DNA of 60,754 bases from Enterobacteria phage JenP1: sequence record NC_029028.1; one strand, given 5' to 3'. Of this stretch, positions 4,807 through 56,350 are shown piece by piece. A model generated the notes under the pieces. It ran no database searches, had not been told where the DNA came from, and saw only the letters and a program-made list of their open reading frames with translations. The number at the start of each line of letters is the position of its first letter. The stretch's first letter is position 1. The translations under genes were made by a program, and so were the position numbers.

Positions 4807-5910
4807 ATGTCTAAAATTCTGTCAGCTCCGATGCTTAATTTGCGAGCTACCAATTCAATTCTTCTGTCTGCTGTTCGTCGCGGTGCGATCACTGAACTAG
4901 AAAACGTTATCGTTCCAGAAATCTTTGTACCATATGTACAGAACCGCACGACTGAAAAGTCCCGACTGATTCAGTCTGGTGCTATTGAGATCTCTGAACG
5001 TCTGAACGCTGCATTGATGGGTGAAGGTACTACCTTTAACCAGCGTTTCTTCAAAGACCTTGATCGTGACGAAGAAAACGTTTCAAGTGCAAGCGATTCA
5101 ACTGATTCTACTCCTGGTGGTATCAACTCCGGTCGTGAAATTCAGATCCGTCTGTCTCGTAACCATTCCTGGGGTTCTGCAGACCTGCTGGACAGCTTGA
5201 TCTCCCCTGACCCTCTGGATGCTATCATTAATCTGGTGGCAAGTTACCGTCAGAGTCGTCTGCAACGTGCATTCGTTGCGACTGTAAGTGGTGTGTTTGC
5301 TATGAACGCCGCTGCTCCGACTGGTTCCGGTGATAAGAAGTCTACTCACGTTCAGAACGATATGACACACGATATCTCTGGTTCAACTTTCACTGACGGT
5401 GTAACTAACTTCAACCCGGCTGGTGTTATCCTGGCTGCTGGTACTATGGGTGACTCCCTGAACGAGCTGTCCATGATGATGGTTCACAGTGTGGTTTACC
5501 AGCGTATGCAGCTCATGAACCTGATCGACTTCATTCCGGATGCTCGTGCTGAAGTGATGATCCCGACCTACATGGGTCGTGAAGTTATCGTTGATGATAT
5601 GATGCCTCACAATAGCGGTAAGTACGAAACCTGGCTGGTTGGTCGTGGTGCATTCCAGTTGGGTGTTGGTTCACCGAAAGTTCCTGTTGAAACTGAACGT
5701 AAACCTGCATCCTACAAAGGTGGTGGTTCTGAAATCCTGTTCCACCGCTGGGAAAACATCATTCACCCTGTCGGTCACGCATGGGTTGGTACTGCTGCTG
5801 AAGGTGGCCCGGATAACGCCGCTCTGAAGACTGCTACCAACTGGGCTCGTGTATTCCCTGAGCGTAAACAGATTAAGATTGCTCGTCTGATCACTCGCGA
5901 ACATGCTTAA
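4807..5910 (+). CDS. major capsid protein
   Basis: 367 aa ORF after scaffold gene, followed by a strong intrinsic terminator; GGAG upstream of ATG 4807 (ORF track starts at 4675). Confidence 0.7.
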   Translation: MSKILSAPMLNLRATNSILLSAVRRGAITELENVIVPEIFVPYVQNRTTEKSRLIQSGAIEISERLNAALMGEGTTFNQRFFKDLDRDEENVSSASDSTDSTPGGINSGREIQIRLSRNHSWGSADLLDSLISPDPLDAIINLVASYRQSRLQRAFVATVSGVFAMNAAAPTGSGDKKSTHVQNDMTHDISGSTFTDGVTNFNPAGVILAAGTMGDSLNELSMMMVHSVVYQRMQLMNLIDFIPDARAEVMIPTYMGREVIVDDMMPHNSGKYETWLVGRGAFQLGVGSPKVPVETERKPASYKGGGSEILFHRWENIIHPVGHAWVGTAAEGGPDNAALKTATNWARVFPERKQIKIARLITREHA

Positions 5911-5930
5911 TGCTTTAGCCATGTAATTAA

Positions 5931-5955
5931 AGGGGCCTATATGGTCCCTTTTTTG
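5931..5955 (+). terminator. intrinsic terminator after capsid gene
   Basis: hairpin AGGGGCC-tatat-GGTCCCT followed by TTTTTT. Confidence 0.6.
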
Positions 5956-5967
5956 TTAGGAGGAAAC

Positions 5968-6402
5968 ATGCGTTATCAACGTCACTCAAGACATCGTCGT
6001 TATGTACGCCACGAACGTCACGGTTCGGATGCAACACCTAAAGAGAAGATTAAGACTGTAGGTAAAGTCCAGTATTCAGCTGATGGTGAAAGCGGTTGGC
6101 AGGATACAATCCCTGCTGGTCTTATGAAAGTAAGTACACCACTGACTTTCTACATTCGTGCTAAAGAAGTAGATCCAGAGGATGATGGTTCTTATGTTTA
6201 TAAGTTCCAGATTGCTGCTGGAACTGGTGATGCGTTGTCCCTTCAAAATACGGGCGTCAACAAAGCAAAAATCTCTGGTACGGCTCCGGAAGGTATGCTG
6301 AGTAAGACGTTCAGTGTCAACTGTACAGTTGAAGACAGTTATGGGACAGAAGTTACGGGAACTGCATTAACGCAAGCCTGGTCTGCTGCTTCTGTAGTGT
6401 AA
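5968..6402 (+). CDS. hypothetical structural protein, Arg/His-rich N-terminus
   Basis: AGGAGG RBS then ATG 5968; beta-rich Ser/Thr/Gly composition suggests Ig-like decoration domain (guess). Confidence 0.4.
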   Translation: MRYQRHSRHRRYVRHERHGSDATPKEKIKTVGKVQYSADGESGWQDTIPAGLMKVSTPLTFYIRAKEVDPEDDGSYVYKFQIAAGTGDALSLQNTGVNKAKISGTAPEGMLSKTFSVNCTVEDSYGTEVTGTALTQAWSAASVV

Positions 6403-6427
6403 ACGTTAAATTGCTAGATGTTTTAAA

Positions 6428-6462
6428 GGGTGTTACACTTCGCTTGTAACACCTTTTATTTT
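6428..6462 (+). terminator. intrinsic terminator
   Basis: stem GGTGTTACA / TGTAACACC with 7-nt loop followed by TTTTATTTT. Confidence 0.6.
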
Positions 6463-6471
6463 GAGGAATGA

Positions 6472-7143
6472 ATGATGAAAGACAAGATCATTGAAGGGCT
6501 TCGTAAACTCAATGCTGAGAACGACAATCATTGGACTGCCGATGGTCTGCCTAAAATTGAAGCACTGAAGTTTACAGTTGGGCCGTCCGTCACGCGAGAA
6601 GATGTCAATTCTGTTGCGCCTGGGTTCACTCGTTCAAATCCTGTAATTGAGGACGTCGAACATGAAGAAAAGCATGACACTTCCTCATTGCAGGAAACCG
6701 AACAGACGGAAATTGTTGCAGATACCGACAATGCACAATATGAGTCCTTATCTAAGGTTGAAGCAGATAAGGAAACTGTTAACGGTAAATCAATTGTCAC
6801 TACGCGAGTAGCTTTCGACATTAACGCCAGTGACGCGGTTAAGGCAATGCTGAAAGATATCCCGGTTATTGACTTTGACACTGTTTCTGTGGAAGAGCTT
6901 AAAGAATATGAAAAAGTTCTTTCGGAACAAGTTAACGCAGACAACCAGATGTTATCTGCAATGCACGAACTTGTTGAAGCTCGTGCTAAACTGTACGCAA
7001 AAGTCAACACCGAAATTGAACGCCGTAAGCCTAAGACAGAGCTGGCTCACACGTTAGCATCTTTCCGCGACCAGATGGCTCAAGTACAACATGTGGTCAA
7101 TCAACCTCGTATGGTTGTTCGTAACGGTATCCGCACTCGTTAA
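6472..7143 (+). CDS. hypothetical protein (head module)
   Basis: 223 aa acidic ORF with GAGG RBS; no motif recognised. Confidence 0.45.
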   Translation: MMKDKIIEGLRKLNAENDNHWTADGLPKIEALKFTVGPSVTREDVNSVAPGFTRSNPVIEDVEHEEKHDTSSLQETEQTEIVADTDNAQYESLSKVEADKETVNGKSIVTTRVAFDINASDAVKAMLKDIPVIDFDTVSVEELKEYEKVLSEQVNADNQMLSAMHELVEARAKLYAKVNTEIERRKPKTELAHTLASFRDQMAQVQHVVNQPRMVVRNGIRTR

Positions 7144-50911: not shown

Positions 50912-51177
50912 TTCCTCCAGATATCACGCGATTCTTCAATACGGATGTTGTACCGTATAAGTTGTTGCATAACTTTATGCAGGTCATCCAGATGCTTCCT
51001 TAAACGAAGACGTTTCTTGATAGCCCACAGTTTCTTCATATCCGTCCGGTGAAGCTCCTCCCTTAAATACAATGAAAAGTCAGTCTGCTGATCTAAGATA
51101 AATTGGATACGCATCAAAGTATCTGACTTACGATAATCAGGATACCACTTAGGAAGCAGATCTTGTTCGCCAATCAT
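50908..51177 (-). CDS. hypothetical protein
   Basis: ATG 51177 with GGAGCG RBS, just after upstream stop (ORF track 51291 overlaps upstream gene). Confidence 0.4.
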   Translation of the reverse strand: MIGEQDLLPKWYPDYRKSDTLMRIQFILDQQTDFSLYLREELHRTDMKKLWAIKKRLRLRKHLDDLHKVMQQLIRYNIRIEESRDIWRK

Positions 51178-51178
51178 C

Positions 51179-51799
51179 TTACGCTCCAAACTGATCAATG
51201 TATTCAATGAGCTCTTGCAATTCTTGCTGTAACTGCACATTACCACTATTATTCGTCTGAAGTCTAACGAGGCGTTCTTTGATATGTGCAATGTGGTTAC
51301 TGCTCATCCGACGCTTCTGTACATCACACCAACGAACAACACCATCTTCAATATACGCACGACGCGCTTTACCACGCGGGTATCGCAACGGCCGAACTTC
51401 ACACTTATCGTCCACCCACTTAAAGCCCAGGATCATAACAGCGTTACCTTCCGTATCAGGACACACGTCAAAGCAACTGTTGAACCCTTTACTGCGCATA
51501 TATTCGTTCAGCGGAATCACACAATCCACCTCTAACAACCAGTATCCGAAGTAAATGTCAACAGTGAACATCATCCCTAACATCGGAGCCGACCAGCACA
51601 TATACATCCGCCCGTCATCCAACTTCTTGACCGCATTCGGCCGCAACACGAGGCCAGCCGCCTTCCACGCTTTGACCACATTACTTAGGCTGTCTTTGTG
51701 CTGTTCTAATATGGCTACCGCTTTGGCGTACATTTGTTCGTCATAACCGAACATTTCCTGTACGTGTGCGTGCGTTATTTCAATATTACGATTCCGCAT
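51179..51799 (-). CDS. hypothetical protein, first gene after leftward control region
   Basis: 206 aa ORF, no motif recognised. Confidence 0.45.
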   Translation of the reverse strand: MRNRNIEITHAHVQEMFGYDEQMYAKAVAILEQHKDSLSNVVKAWKAAGLVLRPNAVKKLDDGRMYMCWSAPMLGMMFTVDIYFGYWLLEVDCVIPLNEYMRSKGFNSCFDVCPDTEGNAVMILGFKWVDDKCEVRPLRYPRGKARRAYIEDGVVRWCDVQKRRMSSNHIAHIKERLVRLQTNNSGNVQLQQELQELIEYIDQFGA

Positions 51800-51859
51800 A
51801 ACCTCACCCTTGATAATAATAAATCGACTGATTTTGAAATTCAGTTGCCAAGTTTTAAT

Positions 51860-52010
51860 TTATGCAAAGTTTTTGCTATTTGCAACCGTGATATTTTGCG
51901 GTGTTTGTATGTGCAATGTTTTTGCTTTTGCAAAAATTACAGCAGTCTGAAGGTGAGAAATTGCAAATTTATAAAGATCGGTGAAAAAATGCACAATTTA
52001 TAAAGATCCA
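51860..52010. repeat. AT-rich region with direct repeats (AATTTATAAAGATC x2, TTGCAA-type motifs)
   Basis: two exact 14-mers at 51966-51979 and 51995-52008; multiple TTTGC/GCAAA elements. Confidence 0.6.
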
Positions 52011-52681
52011 GCAACATACGAACCAGTGAAGCGAAGTGTATGAAAAATAAGGGAAAATTTCGAGGGTTGGGAGGTTTGTATGAATTTATATTATTTATAA
52101 AGGGGTCCCGTAGGGGTCGTCAGTAGACAACTCAAAAATAAAAAAATCTTTATAAAATTTATATAAATACACACACATACACATTTTTACCTTATTTTTC
52201 ATGCACTTACCTCCTTTCATTTCGTTTATTAAGCGACTATATATGAGCAATATGACATATATTTGTTGCGCAACGACTGTGTGTTTTCTAACCAATCGAA
52301 AGATTACTTTATATACGTCCGCGCGTCTAACACAAAAGAAAAGTGGATTGCAAGTGATTTTTGCTGAGGTAACTCTCGAAGTGAAAGCGATTTGCGAGTT
52401 TGAAATTTTGTAGCCCGAAAACGATTCTATTTTATGGTATAAATGTCGGATTTTTCGGGCAAAGCCGGCTTTTCGGTGAGGTTGGGTGGCTGGGATCTGG
52501 GTAACGGGTAGCCCATAAATCGAAAATAGCCGCGAAAACGGGGCACGCAGCGCGATTAAATGGTTGGATCAGTGTAAGGGTGGCGGTGAGGGGCGAAAAT
52601 GCCGCAAATTGCCGCTTTTTAACGCTTAAATCTGGTGACATAATGTACTATTATTGATATGAAAATAGTTCGCGACAGAAT

Positions 52682-52711
52682 TTGCTATCAAGAATCGCGG
52701 GTTGGTATAAT
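52682..52711 (+). promoter_or_regulatory. sigma70-like promoter with extended -10 (TTGCTA-18-TGgTATAAT)
   Basis: consensus TATAAT at 52706-52711 with TG two bases upstream; followed by GGAGG RBS and ATG 52741. Confidence 0.45.
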
Positions 52712-52740
52712 GCACTTGTCAATAATAACGGGAGGTAACA

Positions 52741-53213
52741 TGGACTGGAGTAATTATTTTGAATATAAGGATGGTAAATTATTCTCTAAGGTAACTAGAG
52801 GGAAAGTAAAGGAAGGTGACGAAGTTGGCACGCTGGACGCGAACGGTTACAAGGTGTTTTCGTTCAAGGGCAGACGGTATTATGTGCATCGCGTTATATA
52901 TGAGATGCACTACGGTCCAATTCCGACCGGTATGGTGGTAGACCATATTTGGCGCAACCGTGCGGACAACCGAATTGAGAATATACGTGTGGTCACCAAG
53001 AGTGATAATGCAAAGAACGCAAAATTGTATAGTAATAATTCAAGCGGCGTGACAGGTGTAAGATGGGATAGTCAACTTGGCAAATATTACGCCTATATTA
53101 AAGCAGACGGTAAATTAAAAAGTTTGGGACTATTTGAAAGCAAAGAGGAAGCAATAAAAGCCCGTAAAGATGCAGAGGTCAAATATTGCTTCCATGAGAA
53201 TCACGGTAAATAG
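52741..53213 (+). CDS. HNH homing endonuclease with AP2-like DNA-binding domain
   Basis: YVHRVIYEMHYGPIP...VVDHI.RNRADNRIENIRVVT..N (HNH) then GVTGVRWD...GKYYAYI (AP2-like); ORF track starts at 52659. Confidence 0.65.
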
Positions 53214-53462
53214 TTATTTATTATCTAATAGTACAGCCCAGGTATTATCTGGAAGCGTACCAATTCCAAGCGGTTTAACTTGCTTGTCTTTTTGCTGCAT
53301 ATTGTAGTCGTCAATTAACTGCTGCGCGGCGAACATGGCGTTCGCTTTAGCGTCCAGAGCGTAGTCTATATCTTCCACCTTGCACATATTCAGACCGACA
53401 GCTTTGAAGCGAGTACCACGGGACATAGTTGGAGCCAGGGTCTTGACATGAATAGCTTGCAT
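53214..53462 (-). CDS. hypothetical protein
   Basis: 82 aa ORF. Confidence 0.35.
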   Translation of the reverse strand: MQAIHVKTLAPTMSRGTRFKAVGLNMCKVEDIDYALDAKANAMFAAQQLIDDYNMQQKDKQVKPLGIGTLPDNTWAVLLDNK

Positions 53463-53530
53463 AATAATTTCCTCAGTTAACTATGCGAAGTGCATATTAT
53501 TGCCCACTGTTACTATGGGCAATGTATATG

Positions 53531-53695
53531 TCACTCAGCGGACATATATTCTAACGCTTCTGATAGTGTAGCGAAGTGACCATCACTTACCAGATTAATA
53601 GCGTACTCAAGTTGATCGCGGGTTAGGTTGCGAAACTTGTTGCGGATGTGATAGCAACGACCGCGATAAATAAACTGGAAATAGTTGCGTTCCAT
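53531..53695 (-). CDS. hypothetical small protein
   Basis: ATG 53695 with AAGGTGA RBS (ORF track 53773 overlaps upstream gene). Confidence 0.35.
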   Translation of the reverse strand: MERNYFQFIYRGRCYHIRNKFRNLTRDQLEYAINLVSDGHFATLSEALEYMSAE

Positions 53696-53705
53696 AATTA
53701 TCACC

Positions 53706-53951
53706 TTATTGAATAATAAACGCGTAACCGCTCTGGTCCGGTAGCTCTCCACCAGCGAGGATCTCAAACTCAACGCCCGCTTTGGCGTTTAACTTTTTGA
53801 TAAGCTCTTCCGCTGCTGCGCGGTGGTTGCCTATGATGTCTAATCTATAATCCCAGCCAACGGTAACTTTACTGTTCCAACTTTTAGCGACAACGCGCGG
53901 TCCGAGAGTGTTAGTAGCAGCCAGGAATTTGGTGATGATAGCTTGAGCCAT
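53706..53951 (-). CDS. hypothetical protein
   Basis: 81 aa ORF. Confidence 0.4.
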   Translation of the reverse strand: MAQAIITKFLAATNTLGPRVVAKSWNSKVTVGWDYRLDIIGNHRAAAEELIKKLNAKAGVEFEILAGGELPDQSGYAFIIQ

Positions 53952-53956
53952 GATAA

Positions 53957-54142
53957 TTACTCCGGTAAAATTACAGTGACGTTAATATTTGCAATGCGAG
54001 CGCACTCGCGGAAACCTTTTACATACGCATCCATTTCGTCATAGGATGCGAAAGTTGCGTGCGGGACTGGACCACTGTTAATATTCACGCAATATTCGTA
54101 TTCTTCCAGGTCAACCCAGCAGTGTAGAACTATAGTTTCCAT
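53957..54142 (-). CDS. hypothetical small protein
   Basis: ATG 54142 with GGAGGG RBS (ORF track 54175). Confidence 0.4.
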   Translation of the reverse strand: METIVLHCWVDLEEYEYCVNINSGPVPHATFASYDEMDAYVKGFRECARIANINVTVILPE

Positions 54143-54220
54143 ATTATTTGCCCTCCGTATAGTACAGACCTGCAACTATTGGAGCGCCGAACACTAAGAA
54201 GGCCAATAAGTAGAACATAA

Positions 54221-54715
54221 TTAGTTGCCCCCTTTATTGTTGAGCGCGTGGAATTTACGCCATGCGTAGAATTCAATCGTTGCATTATTAATATTCCAAC
54301 CATTAGCTTTCGCAAGGTCACGGACGTTACCAATAGTTGGCACACCATTAGGCAACATATTATCCAGAGCGTTCCAAACGTCTGCGCATTTACCTTTAAT
54401 CGGCCGACGAACCCCGTTGCGCGTTTCGCTGCGTGCTTTACTTTTAGCGGGAGCGACCGGAGCTTGTTGTGTGGTCACTTCCACGACAGTCGCTTTATCA
54501 GCTTCAACCAGATCGTTAGCTGCCTTATTAACCGCGCTTTCGCTGAACCAGTAGCGGCCACCGTCTTCATGCGGCTCCTGGTGAATAAAGCTGTTAGCTG
54601 TCGCAGTGTCCACATCCAGAACCTTTTTCAAGGCACGGCGAGCGTTAGACATATTGGTGAAGAAGCGAGCATCTTTTGCTACGCGAGTGATAGTAGCCAT
54701 TGTGATTATCTCCAT
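54221..54715 (-). CDS. hypothetical protein
   Basis: 164 aa ORF. Confidence 0.4.
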   Translation of the reverse strand: MEIITMATITRVAKDARFFTNMSNARRALKKVLDVDTATANSFIHQEPHEDGGRYWFSESAVNKAANDLVEADKATVVEVTTQQAPVAPAKSKARSETRNGVRRPIKGKCADVWNALDNMLPNGVPTIGNVRDLAKANGWNINNATIEFYAWRKFHALNNKGGN

Positions 54716-54776
54716 GTTGTTCTAGCGGATTGCTAGTGGGAGCCCACTGTGACAATGGGCAACCATTAGCACGCTA

Positions 54777-55082
54777 TTATTGCTGGATAGCTTTAGCTAT
54801 CATTGTGATGAAGCAGAACACAGACCAAAGGCTATTCGCTTGGCATACTGGTCTACCGTACATTACGCTATAAGAGCTGACAGTGCCGTCCTCGTTAATG
54901 CGAATATATAACGCGGTGCTGGAATATTTTTCGTTGCCCGGGAGCATTACCAGATACTCGTCAAAACCCCAATCCCCTTCAACCTTTTCCGCAGTAAGGC
55001 CCAGTTGGTGCAGGCGCTTGCCGATAATACGTTTGGTGATCTGAGACTGGGACATGGAACGCGGTAAATAGATAATAGACAT
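54777..55082 (-). CDS. hypothetical protein
   Basis: ATG 55082 with AAGGGAG RBS (ORF track 55151). Confidence 0.4.
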   Translation of the reverse strand: MSIIYLPRSMSQSQITKRIIGKRLHQLGLTAEKVEGDWGFDEYLVMLPGNEKYSSTALYIRINEDGTVSSYSVMYGRPVCQANSLWSVFCFITMIAKAIQQ

Positions 55083-55175
55083 AATGCAATCTCCCTTCGG
55101 GTGAAGCGGGCGCGGAACCCGTGTCCCGCTTGAAAACCCCCTTAACCCCACGCGTTTATAATACGAATTTTAGAT

Positions 55176-55205
55176 GTTGGATGCAAGTAGCATCCAACAA
55201 TTTTT
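55176..55205 (+). terminator. terminator-like hairpin (plus-strand orientation)
   Basis: stem GTTGGATG / CATCCAAC followed by TTTTTATTATTTTTT. Confidence 0.35.
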
Positions 55206-55213
55206 ATTATTTT

Positions 55214-55522
55214 TTAGCCCGGTAGCTTACCAATATCCCCGTTGATAGCTAGATAGCTGGGAGCTATTTGGTTGCTAAAAATAACGCTGGTATATTGTGC
55301 ATCCGGTAAAATAAACACCTCTAAATAATCACACTGTAAAACTATTTCCTCCTCATCCATTTGTGTTGTTGTAAAGCCCACTGCGTTGGGCGCGTTAACT
55401 AGCGCGGTGGTGTGCTGCGCGGGCACCTGGTAACTAATATGCAGGCCGCTACCATAACCGTCCACGGCGTGCTGTGTGCTGTATTTGCGGATGGTGGTGT
55501 GCATAACGTGTAAAGTAACCAT
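55214..55522 (-). CDS. hypothetical protein, first gene of leftward early array
   Basis: 102 aa; RBS AAAGGGGG 7 nt upstream of ATG. Confidence 0.45.
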   Translation of the reverse strand: MVTLHVMHTTIRKYSTQHAVDGYGSGLHISYQVPAQHTTALVNAPNAVGFTTTQMDEEEIVLQCDYLEVFILPDAQYTSVIFSNQIAPSYLAINGDIGKLPG

Positions 55523-55798
55523 ATAAAACCCCCTTTTGGTATGTATACTTGCCCAACTAGTATGGTAGTTTAAAAAACGCTACCCCCTGGGCCCAATGGA
55601 GTAGCGTTACGCAACGCTTGCACGCTGCGTAAGTGCTGCGCGTGGGGGTGTACCCCCACACAGCACGGGTATTATAACGCATCCAGTGGATGTAAAAAAC
55701 TAGTATTCAAAAATAGTCTTGTAAATTTTTAAGTCCTACTATTAAAAGCAATCCGCATAGTAACCGACGCAACTATGCAAACGTATATAGCAACGATG

Positions 55799-55987
55799 TG
55801 TATAATAACAGACATTACTATATAGTCCGTTATGGTAGGCTGTGCCACTATCCATAGGTTATACTATGTGCATGTATATAGTAACGGATGTAATAATACT
55901 GGACATTACAGTATGGTGATGCAATAGATAGCACACTAATCTAATAAAAAATAATAACGCGTGTAATAATAAACAACGTTACAATAG
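55799..55987. repeat. three imperfect ~27-bp direct repeats (TGTAATAATA-n-GACATTAC-n-TAT) in divergent control region
   Basis: copies at about 55799-55825, 55889-55916, 55963-55987. Confidence 0.55.
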
Positions 55988-56350
55988 AACACACAACAGT
56001 CACATGACGTAACAATCACCTCACTGACGATCACGGGACGTTATAGTAACGCCGCGGGGCGGCTCTTAGATCTCTGCCAAGGATTCTTCGTTTGTAGATT
56101 ATCTCGTCACTAGACACTTTATATCCTCACCTCACATGTCCTATATTGTTCGTATAAAGTTAGTTCCGTATGTAAATACTCGAGAGACGATTTAAAACAT
56201 TCGGTTTGCCGGTATGCGTAACGGATTCTGCGGCACCATGAATTAAAGCACACGAGACGACTAACTGTGGTTATTAATTGTTGCGGTCACGTATGTTAAT
56301 CAACTTGCGTATCCTGTTATAGTTATTCCGTTAACGTTAAAGGGGGTTAT

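Follow-up and report, generated by a model that had tools for sequence, protein, structure and literature searches.

The genome record of Enterobacteria phage JenP1 (NC_029028.1; 60,754 nt, the whole stretch of DNA analysed here and hereafter called the window), which judged by its sequence is that of a 9g-like (Nonagvirus) coliphage, contains a gene-free stretch of ~940 bp that most likely holds a physical end of the packaged DNA, namely the left edge of a ~4-kb direct terminal repeat. This gap is bounded on the left by a minus-strand gene encoding a 206-amino-acid protein (51179-51799) and on the right by the ATG, at 52740, of an HNH gene. An earlier sequence-only reading had described it as one large noncoding region without convincing open reading frames (ORFs), possibly a replication origin, a regulatory hub or the source of a small RNA. 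Positions 51800-52739 are gene-free and hold no conserved ORF, but they do not form a single unit: the homology of the relatives ends at 52608, 51800-52608 being common to ~20 Nonagvirus relatives and 52609-53213 being found in the window only. We explain the gene-free stretch as a composite of a terminal-repeat boundary, a control region, a conserved cis element and an HNH cassette, and put the probability of this explanation, taken as a whole, at about 0.75.

All megablast matches of the gap region are Nonagvirus phages (Queuovirinae), and the relatives matched (9g, JenK1, JenP2, BRET, HdSG1, HdK1, Bas19, Bas20, ESCO3, SE1, SP8 and PD328) are 86-94% identical to it. Searches with blastn, and with tblastn using the flanking 206-amino-acid protein as the query, reached Nonagvirus only and nothing more distant, and a pattern scan of IMG/VR returned close relatives only. 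In all relatives the gap measures ~1040 bp and lies between two minus-strand genes, within a long leftward array of early and replication genes. The records of HdSG1 and HdK1 are ~3.4 kb longer than those of the other relatives, and the query matched each of them twice: the first 3363 bp of HdSG1 and the first 3367 bp of HdK1 recur exactly at the right ends of the records, with 0 mismatches between the end copies. The authors of both records placed the genome ends where most reads stopped abruptly. The left end of HdSG1, between a and TTTATAAAGGGGTC, corresponds to window position 52094, and that of HdK1, between ttt and ATAAAGGGGTC, to 52097; both coincide with a third copy of the 10-mer ATTTATAAAG. 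The right end is identical in the two phages, lies between GCCGCGGGGCGGCTC and TTAGATC, and corresponds to window position 56065. Both boundary sequences are conserved in the window, the left one as TATATTA followed by TTTATAAAGGGGTC at 52094 and the right one as GCCGCGGGGCGGCTC followed by TTAGATC at 56065. Since the boundaries map to 52094/52097 and 56065, the repeat of the window would span 52094-56065, or 3972 bp including the HNH insertion. The window record itself is devoid of terminal redundancy, the exact end repeats having been established in HdSG1 and HdK1. It begins with the gene of the small terminase subunit, at 1-552, and that of the large one, and because it was opened at these genes its start is not a physical DNA end.

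Position 56065 is the same nucleotide as the end of phage 9g at nt 28243, where a read-start hot spot was reported (Kulikov et al., 2014; PMC4276943) and where run-off sequencing stopped in 33-50% of the templates (Tsai et al., 2017; PMC5567051). Two repeats with the core SRYCRCGGGRCG precede the 9g cut site (Tsai et al., 2017; PMC5567051). Both of these published pac core repeats are exact in the window (GATCACGGGACG at 56029-56040 and CGCCGCGGGGCG at 56050-56061, plus strand) and precede the right boundary, the whole feature occupying 56029-56065 with 56065 as its last base. A terminal repeat predicts that ~50% of the copies of this site are cut, to be set beside the 33-50% seen in 9g. Packaging of 9g DNA was proposed to be headful, with a redundancy of ~3.0-3.2 kb and non-specific end cuts, and its DraI digest was published as containing an "~8.4 kb doublet" and lacking a 5.2-kb fragment (Tsai et al., 2017; PMC5567051). 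We recomputed the fragment sizes with the left end of 9g set at the homologous nt 25160. Such a fixed-end genome has a repeat of 3084 bp, gives DraI end fragments of 8363 and 8238 bp and yields no 5.2-kb fragment; it thus reproduces the doublet, the missing fragment and the 3.0-3.2 kb redundancy. With a fixed terminal repeat one would expect both a discrete end band and a cut fraction of ~50%. Phage iggy has a direct terminal repeat of 1091 bp, and its large terminase subunit (TerL) belongs to a larger clade that also contains the TerL proteins of Nonagvirus.

The sequence around the left boundary is rich in repeats. The sequence-only reading had pointed to two exact repeat copies 29 bp apart, and these were confirmed as copies of AATTTATAAAGATC at 51966-51979 and 51995-52008 (plus strand), in unique DNA that adjoins the terminal repeat on its left; they are conserved in 17 of 17 close relatives. 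It had overlooked a third copy of the 10-mer ATTTATAAAG at 52093 and an inverted copy at 52146-52156. In the whole 60.7-kb window this 10-mer occurs three times (51967, 51996 and 52093), all inside 136 bp, against an expected count of 0.29, and 0 of 100 shuffles reached three; the three direct copies of TTTATAAAG are likewise kept in 17 of 17 close relatives. The terminus core (52086-52140, plus strand) contains the left boundary between 52093 and 52094 (HdSG1) or between 52096 and 52097 (HdK1), which falls inside the palindrome TTTATAAA (52094-52101). Downstream of this palindrome, two GGGGTC boxes 11 bp apart (52102-52107 and 52113-52118) form the arrangement GGGGTC-N5-GGGGTC. The terminus is bracketed by a nested imperfect inverted repeat (52034-52208), the outer arms of which (52034-52057 and 52185-52208) are 24 nt long and 92% complementary, and the inner arms of which are TTTATAAAGAT and ATCTTTATAAA. 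Folded as single-stranded DNA, 52020-52225 has a z-score of -3.3, and 0 of 200 shuffles folded as well. The first ~150 bp of the repeat (52094-52245) are AT-rich and highly conserved, and include the inverted motif copy together with the CA-rich stretch of the sequence-only reading, which was located at 52168-52184. When the two boundaries of the repeat were compared by eye, no convincing common motif was found.

Conservation among the relatives changes abruptly at the same place. Nucleotide diversity, computed over 13 genomes, falls exactly at the terminal-repeat boundary from 0.24 over the 34 bp that precede the terminus (52060-52093) to 0.051 in the first 152 bp inside the repeat (52094-52245). 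The other parts of the region give 0.064 (51936-52059), 0.27, a neutral-like value, in a variable spacer (52246-52334) that exists in three haplotypes and carries 8- and 10-nt indels, and 0.062 (52335-52608); in the flanking coding sequence the values are 0.164 for third and 0.054 for second codon positions of gene 51179-51799, and 0.299 for third codon positions of gene 53214-53462. A diverged lineage from the Logan assemblies SRR6474906/7 (loci L022 and L023, of which 4965-6633 were compared with window 51175-52608) is instructive. The protein of its flanking 206-amino-acid gene is only 71% identical, and this gene and the unique 295 bp upstream of it form one divergent cassette of ~75% identity in genomes that are otherwise 91-96% identical. 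Homology returns ~8 nt left of the terminus, at a mosaic breakpoint. The terminus copy is the only copy of the motif that this lineage retains, the upstream copies being swapped for three direct repeats of the AAATTAACA type; in L022 the inverted motif copy and the left, outer arm of the inverted repeat are lost and the CGAAAA block described below is retained. Because only the terminus copy survives and the upstream repeats are replaced, we assign the terminus function to ~52086-52140. The upstream repeats and the 206-amino-acid gene appear, from this comparison, to evolve as one cassette.

With the left boundary at 52094/52097, the packaged DNA would therefore have its start at TTTATAAA, the palindrome that precedes GGGGTC-N5-GGGGTC, and its right end would carry a second copy of the 4 kb. 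Terminase would start at the pac repeats, cut at 56065 and package leftward, the direction concluded in the 9g papers (PMC4276943, PMC5567051). The first copy of 52094 would be passed uncut and, after about one genome plus the repeat, a sequence-specific cut dependent on head filling would be made at 52094-52097. Both the packaging direction and such a gated cut are probably right, by analogy with T7 and lambda. The nested inverted repeat at the terminus also recalls the hairpin-primed duplication model that Chung, Nardone and Hinkle are said to have put forward for the T7 repeat in 1990. We give this likeness little weight because the outer arm is not conserved in L022.

Several points weigh against a fixed end in the gap. 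The end evidence stems from HdSG1, HdK1 and 9g, and the window record opens at the terminase small-subunit gene. For 9g a single read-start hot spot was reported, at 28243, and no second one (Kulikov et al., 2014; PMC4276943), and its redundancy was read as headful (Tsai et al., 2017; PMC5567051). The left ends of HdSG1 and HdK1 are 3 nt apart rather than coincident, and exact repeats in two GenBank records could in principle be the product of hand editing. In L022 three features are not conserved, namely the inverted copy, the outer arm of the inverted repeat and the AATTTATAAAGATC copies upstream, and so they may be unrelated to end formation. Finally, a terminal-repeat boundary leaves the conserved block at 52335-52608 without an explanation. 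The Logan and European Nucleotide Archive (ENA) contigs that carry the flanking gene show no break at the terminus and therefore provide no additional evidence for an end. Terminal-repeat boundaries as a kind, the repeat in two GenBank records and one published end were already known; in the literature searched, the left end of a Nonagvirus genome is nowhere described, and no conflict with the headful model is noted.

The conserved block at 52335-52608, which would be a strongly conserved cis element within the repeat, is G-rich on the plus strand. It bears out the recurring CGAAAA elements with inverted copies that had been noticed from the letters: six of the 28 genomic copies lie within the 184 bp of 52416-52599, where 0.067 are expected (Poisson P ~1e-10), four of them direct (52416, 52521, 52533 and 52594) and two inverted (52452 and 52470). 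An extended -10-like sequence, TGgTATAAA (52435-52443, plus strand), is identical in 18 of 20 relatives and is flanked by the inverted repeat CCCGAAAA (52414-52421) and TTTTCGGG (52452-52459). From just downstream of it, the GC skew is +0.35 to +0.45, with G on the plus strand, over ~500 bp (52460-52608 and ~230 bp further in the relatives). A leftward RNA across this skewed tract would be C-rich and G-poor, or rut-like, and a rightward RNA would be G-rich.

These features could belong to a replication origin, which is compatible with a terminal-repeat boundary and which we regard as possible, with the odds clearly against it. The CGAAAA copies would be binding repeats of an initiator beside an AT-rich palindromic segment, or else rightward transcription from TGgTATAAA through ~500 bp of G-rich non-template DNA would leave an R-loop primer. 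The clustering of the 6-mers and the skew that begins just downstream of an almost invariant promoter-like site speak for such an origin, as do the strong purifying selection on 52335-52608 (diversity 0.062), the replication genes directly to the left, a minimum of the cumulative GC skew near 52 kb, and an adjacent AT-rich segment containing the nested inverted repeat (52077-52205, 73.6% A+T compared with 56.8% genome-wide). However, the 6-mers are in mixed orientation and irregularly spaced (36, 18, 51, 12 and 61 bp), rather than phased iterons of 12-22 bp. No array of at least three phased direct repeats of ~12-22 bp was found, and L022 has not retained the two 14-bp copies of AATTTATAAAGATC. 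There is no DnaA box (TTATCCACA) with at most one mismatch in 51800-52740, and the neighbouring 206-amino-acid protein has no match in Pfam or the PDB. The skew minimum is confounded by the plus-strand HNH gene, or gene orientation, and by the G-rich block itself; ~230 bp of the G-rich tract are deleted in this viable isolate; and the only canonical G-quadruplex motif of the genome, at 52484, is conserved in just four of 13 sequences.

We hold a bolder version of the terminal-repeat explanation to be doubtful. Under it the headful model would be wrong, and 9g-like siphoviruses would make a gene-carrying exact repeat of 3-4 kb by two different sequence-specific cuts. The left cut would fall in TTTATAAA, inside the nested inverted repeat, and this inverted repeat would act as a snap-back primer by which single-copy concatemer junctions give rise to a duplicated repeat. 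As for the CGAAAA block, which is ultra-conserved and G-skewed and sits at the end of the DNA presumed to be the first into the cell, it would represent a novel cis element: an origin primed by transcription, or else a signal for entry or end protection.

It is improbable that the gap is no more than the usual intergenic control DNA, made up of a terminator, promoters and operators and separating an early operon from a middle one, with headful packaging from the pac site at 56065 to an imprecise other end and an accidental coincidence of the motif with the HdSG1 and HdK1 ends. This is the published model for 9g, and it is favoured by the ~3.0-3.2 kb redundancy proposed by Tsai et al. and the single read-start hot spot of Kulikov et al. 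(PMC5567051, PMC4276943), as well as by a minus-strand intrinsic terminator at the right of the gap in all relatives and a candidate promoter at its left. Rather than an imprecise second end, however, two independent phages have left ends no more than 3 nt apart, with repeats of 3363 and 3367 bp, and the left-end DraI fragment of 9g is discrete and of the size that a fixed end predicts. The conservation step exactly at the boundary and the survival of only the terminus copy of the motif in the diverged lineage also argue for the fixed end.

A small or structured non-coding RNA encoded by the conserved blocks is very improbable; the sequence-only reading had envisaged a small RNA. In its favour, conservation of blocks 52094-52245 and 52335-52608 equals that of second codon positions, and a rightward transcript could arise from the extended -10-like site at 52435-52443, which is almost invariant. 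Yet the covariance-model scan gave no Rfam match in the region when the whole window was searched at gathering thresholds and 51600-53300 at E<=1. Fold z-scores of 52335-52608 are -0.46 on the plus and -1.15 on the minus strand, and RNAalifold on 19 relatives gave a covariation term of -1.69, with essentially no compensatory pairs besides the invariant terminator hairpin. No tRNAs were found.

It is scarcely credible that the gap encodes small proteins, either from a minus-strand ORF of 35 codons (ATG at 52199, stop at 52095) that is preceded by a strong, near-perfect Shine-Dalgarno sequence (AAGGAGGT-N6-ATG) or from a plus-strand ORF of 28 codons (52040-52126), both of which begin with MKNK, and even though several GenBank records annotate short hypothetical coding sequences in the gap, since ORF lengths range from seven to 80 amino acids among the relatives, with frameshifts, premature stops, single-nucleotide indels and one lost start codon, and the annotated coding sequences stand at differing positions and in differing frames between records. 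The shared MKNK comes from the inverted repeat: its two arms (52034-52057 and 52185-52208), each containing ATGAAAAATAAGG, hold the starts of these two convergent ORFs. As neither ORF is conserved among the relatives, both were rejected as genes.

Left of the terminus, the 295 bp of unique DNA (51800-52093) would serve as the control region upstream of the leftward operon of replication genes, comprising a promoter, TTTGC/GCAAA palindromes and the two AATTTATAAAGATC repeats. The TTTGC/GCAAA elements noticed earlier are present and include two direct units of 29 nt (51852-51880 and 51901-51929). The module that they form (51852-51935, with the palindromes GCAAAGTTTTTGC at 51864 and TTTTGCAAAA at 51926) has an intermediate diversity of 0.109, is swapped for other sequence in the L022 lineage, looks operator-like, and overlaps a candidate sigma-70 promoter on the minus strand (51857-51885; -35 TTGCAA at 51885-51880, a 17-nt spacer and -10 TAAATT at 51862-51857). 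This promoter has the top minus-strand score, 12.6, in a position weight matrix scan of 51700-52800, and lies ~50 nt upstream of the ATG at 51799; its sequence differs in HdSG1, HdK1, ESCO3 and L022. By its position it would drive the leftward operon that begins with gene 51179-51799, and we assign the AATTTATAAAGATC copies and the palindromes, together with this promoter, to the presumed control of that operon. A regulatory hub, as first suggested, is thus plausible insofar as a sigma-70-like promoter stands among TTTGC/GCAAA palindromes upstream of the gene at 51799, but the near-consensus promoter that had been part of the suggestion belongs to the inserted HNH cassette. The 206-amino-acid protein falls in a PHROG of unknown function, has an AlphaFold (AF2) model with a mean confidence (pLDDT) of 50.8 that is unusable, and, as said above, lacks Pfam and PDB matches. 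The region shares no k-mers of at least 11 nt with the rest of the genome beyond chance, and no Chi sites lie within it.

At the right of the gap, 52609-53213 is a predicted mobile, recently inserted, free-standing HNH homing-endonuclease cassette. It comprises, on the plus strand, a promoter (52682-52711), the ribosome-binding site GGGAGG and the coding sequence 52740-53213, the product of which matches Pfam HNH_3 (E 2.4e-21) and, weakly, AP2. The near-consensus extended -10 promoter that had been noticed from the letters is real as a motif, TTGCTA-18-TATAAT with TG being the best sigma-70 match in the region, and because homology with the relatives ends at 52608 it belongs to the cassette and not to the conserved noncoding DNA. 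None of the 12 GenBank relatives carries the 605-bp cassette, and neither do the IMG/VR and Logan loci. It took the place of ~230 bp of G-rich DNA that includes a minus-strand intrinsic terminator (GCGCCCTGTTGAAGTCCAACGGGGCG and a T-tract), which is invariant in 19 of 19 relatives (gap positions ~810-1040 in L001-L014). The near-consensus promoter is therefore part of a mobile cassette that removed a conserved terminator. In JenP1 there is no obvious terminator for leftward early transcripts before the conserved block, and such transcripts would run antisense through the HNH gene. The L022/L023 lineage has an HNH_3 gene directly after a gene of 210 codons.

The proposed terminal repeat has counterparts among well-studied phages. 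T7 and T3 have a terminal repeat of 160 bp, with pacB and pacC and the short-repeat arrays SRL and SRR beside it. Common to these phages and to the system proposed here are fixed sequence-specific ends, an exact direct terminal repeat with two boundaries of differing sequence, short repeated motifs and an inverted repeat beside a boundary, and a mixture of cut and uncut boundary copies in virion DNA. The repeat of the Nonagvirus phages differs in being ~25 times longer (3.1-4.0 kb) and gene-carrying, without sequence similarity, and in belonging to a siphovirus whose terminase (PHROG 2/979; weak match to Pfam Terminase_6N) is unrelated; nothing here points to transcription-coupled processing or hairpin intermediates. 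T5-like phages carry a direct terminal repeat of 10.2 kb, which contains pre-early genes and a repeat-rich noncoding region. They resemble the present case as siphoviruses with an exact repeat on the kilobase scale, small early genes transcribed toward the genome end and large repeat-rich noncoding borders. No homology to them was detected, however, the repeat here is 2.5-3 times shorter, and nothing points to two-step DNA transfer or nicks.

The published pac site of 9g is part of the same system, the cut at nt 28243 being the right boundary of the same repeat, preceded by the same 12-bp core repeats, but the published model combines headful packaging with a second cut that is non-specific, whereas the evidence gathered here points to a fixed second end in the gap, a place that the two 9g papers had not mapped. 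Lambda cos (cosQ-cosN-cosB) offers a sequence-specific cut at a partly palindromic site, a terminating cut that needs a nearly full head and a first copy that can pass uncut, a gated logic that would apply here too; lambda differs in its 12-nt cohesive ends and lack of a terminal repeat, and in the Nonagvirus region no IHF consensus sites were found. Iteron and transcription-primed origins (lambda ori, P4 ori/crr, the T7 primary origin and ColE1) similarly have a cluster of short repeats beside an AT-rich segment full of inverted repeats near replication genes, and a possible promoter into a G-rich tract, but here the 6-mers are irregular in orientation and spacing, and DnaA boxes are lacking.

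If the repeat is real, the virion genome of JenP1 would measure ~64.7 kb rather than 60.75 kb, and the HNH gene, its strong promoter and the minus-strand small genes of 53214-55522 would be present twice per virion. The latter segment contains, on the minus strand, six ORFs of at least 50 codons and annotated homologues, all of unknown function (PHROGs 3199 and 17772 among them). For the Nonagvirus group, whose DNA contains the modified base archaeosine, one end had been mapped before and headful packaging proposed; the second physical genome end would now be located. A fixed repeat of ~3-4 kb would define the genes that exist in two copies and that are probably first into the cell. It would also affect the assembly, annotation and engineering of these therapy-relevant phages, since the terminus core and the pac repeats have to be preserved.

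The other edge of the terminal repeat lies in a second large gene-free region, 55523-56350, which contains the pac repeats and the boundary at 56065. It presumably also contains divergent early and late promoters, and it has many AT-rich direct and inverted repeats, such as GTAACGGATGTAATAATA and CATTACTATATAGTCCGTTA.

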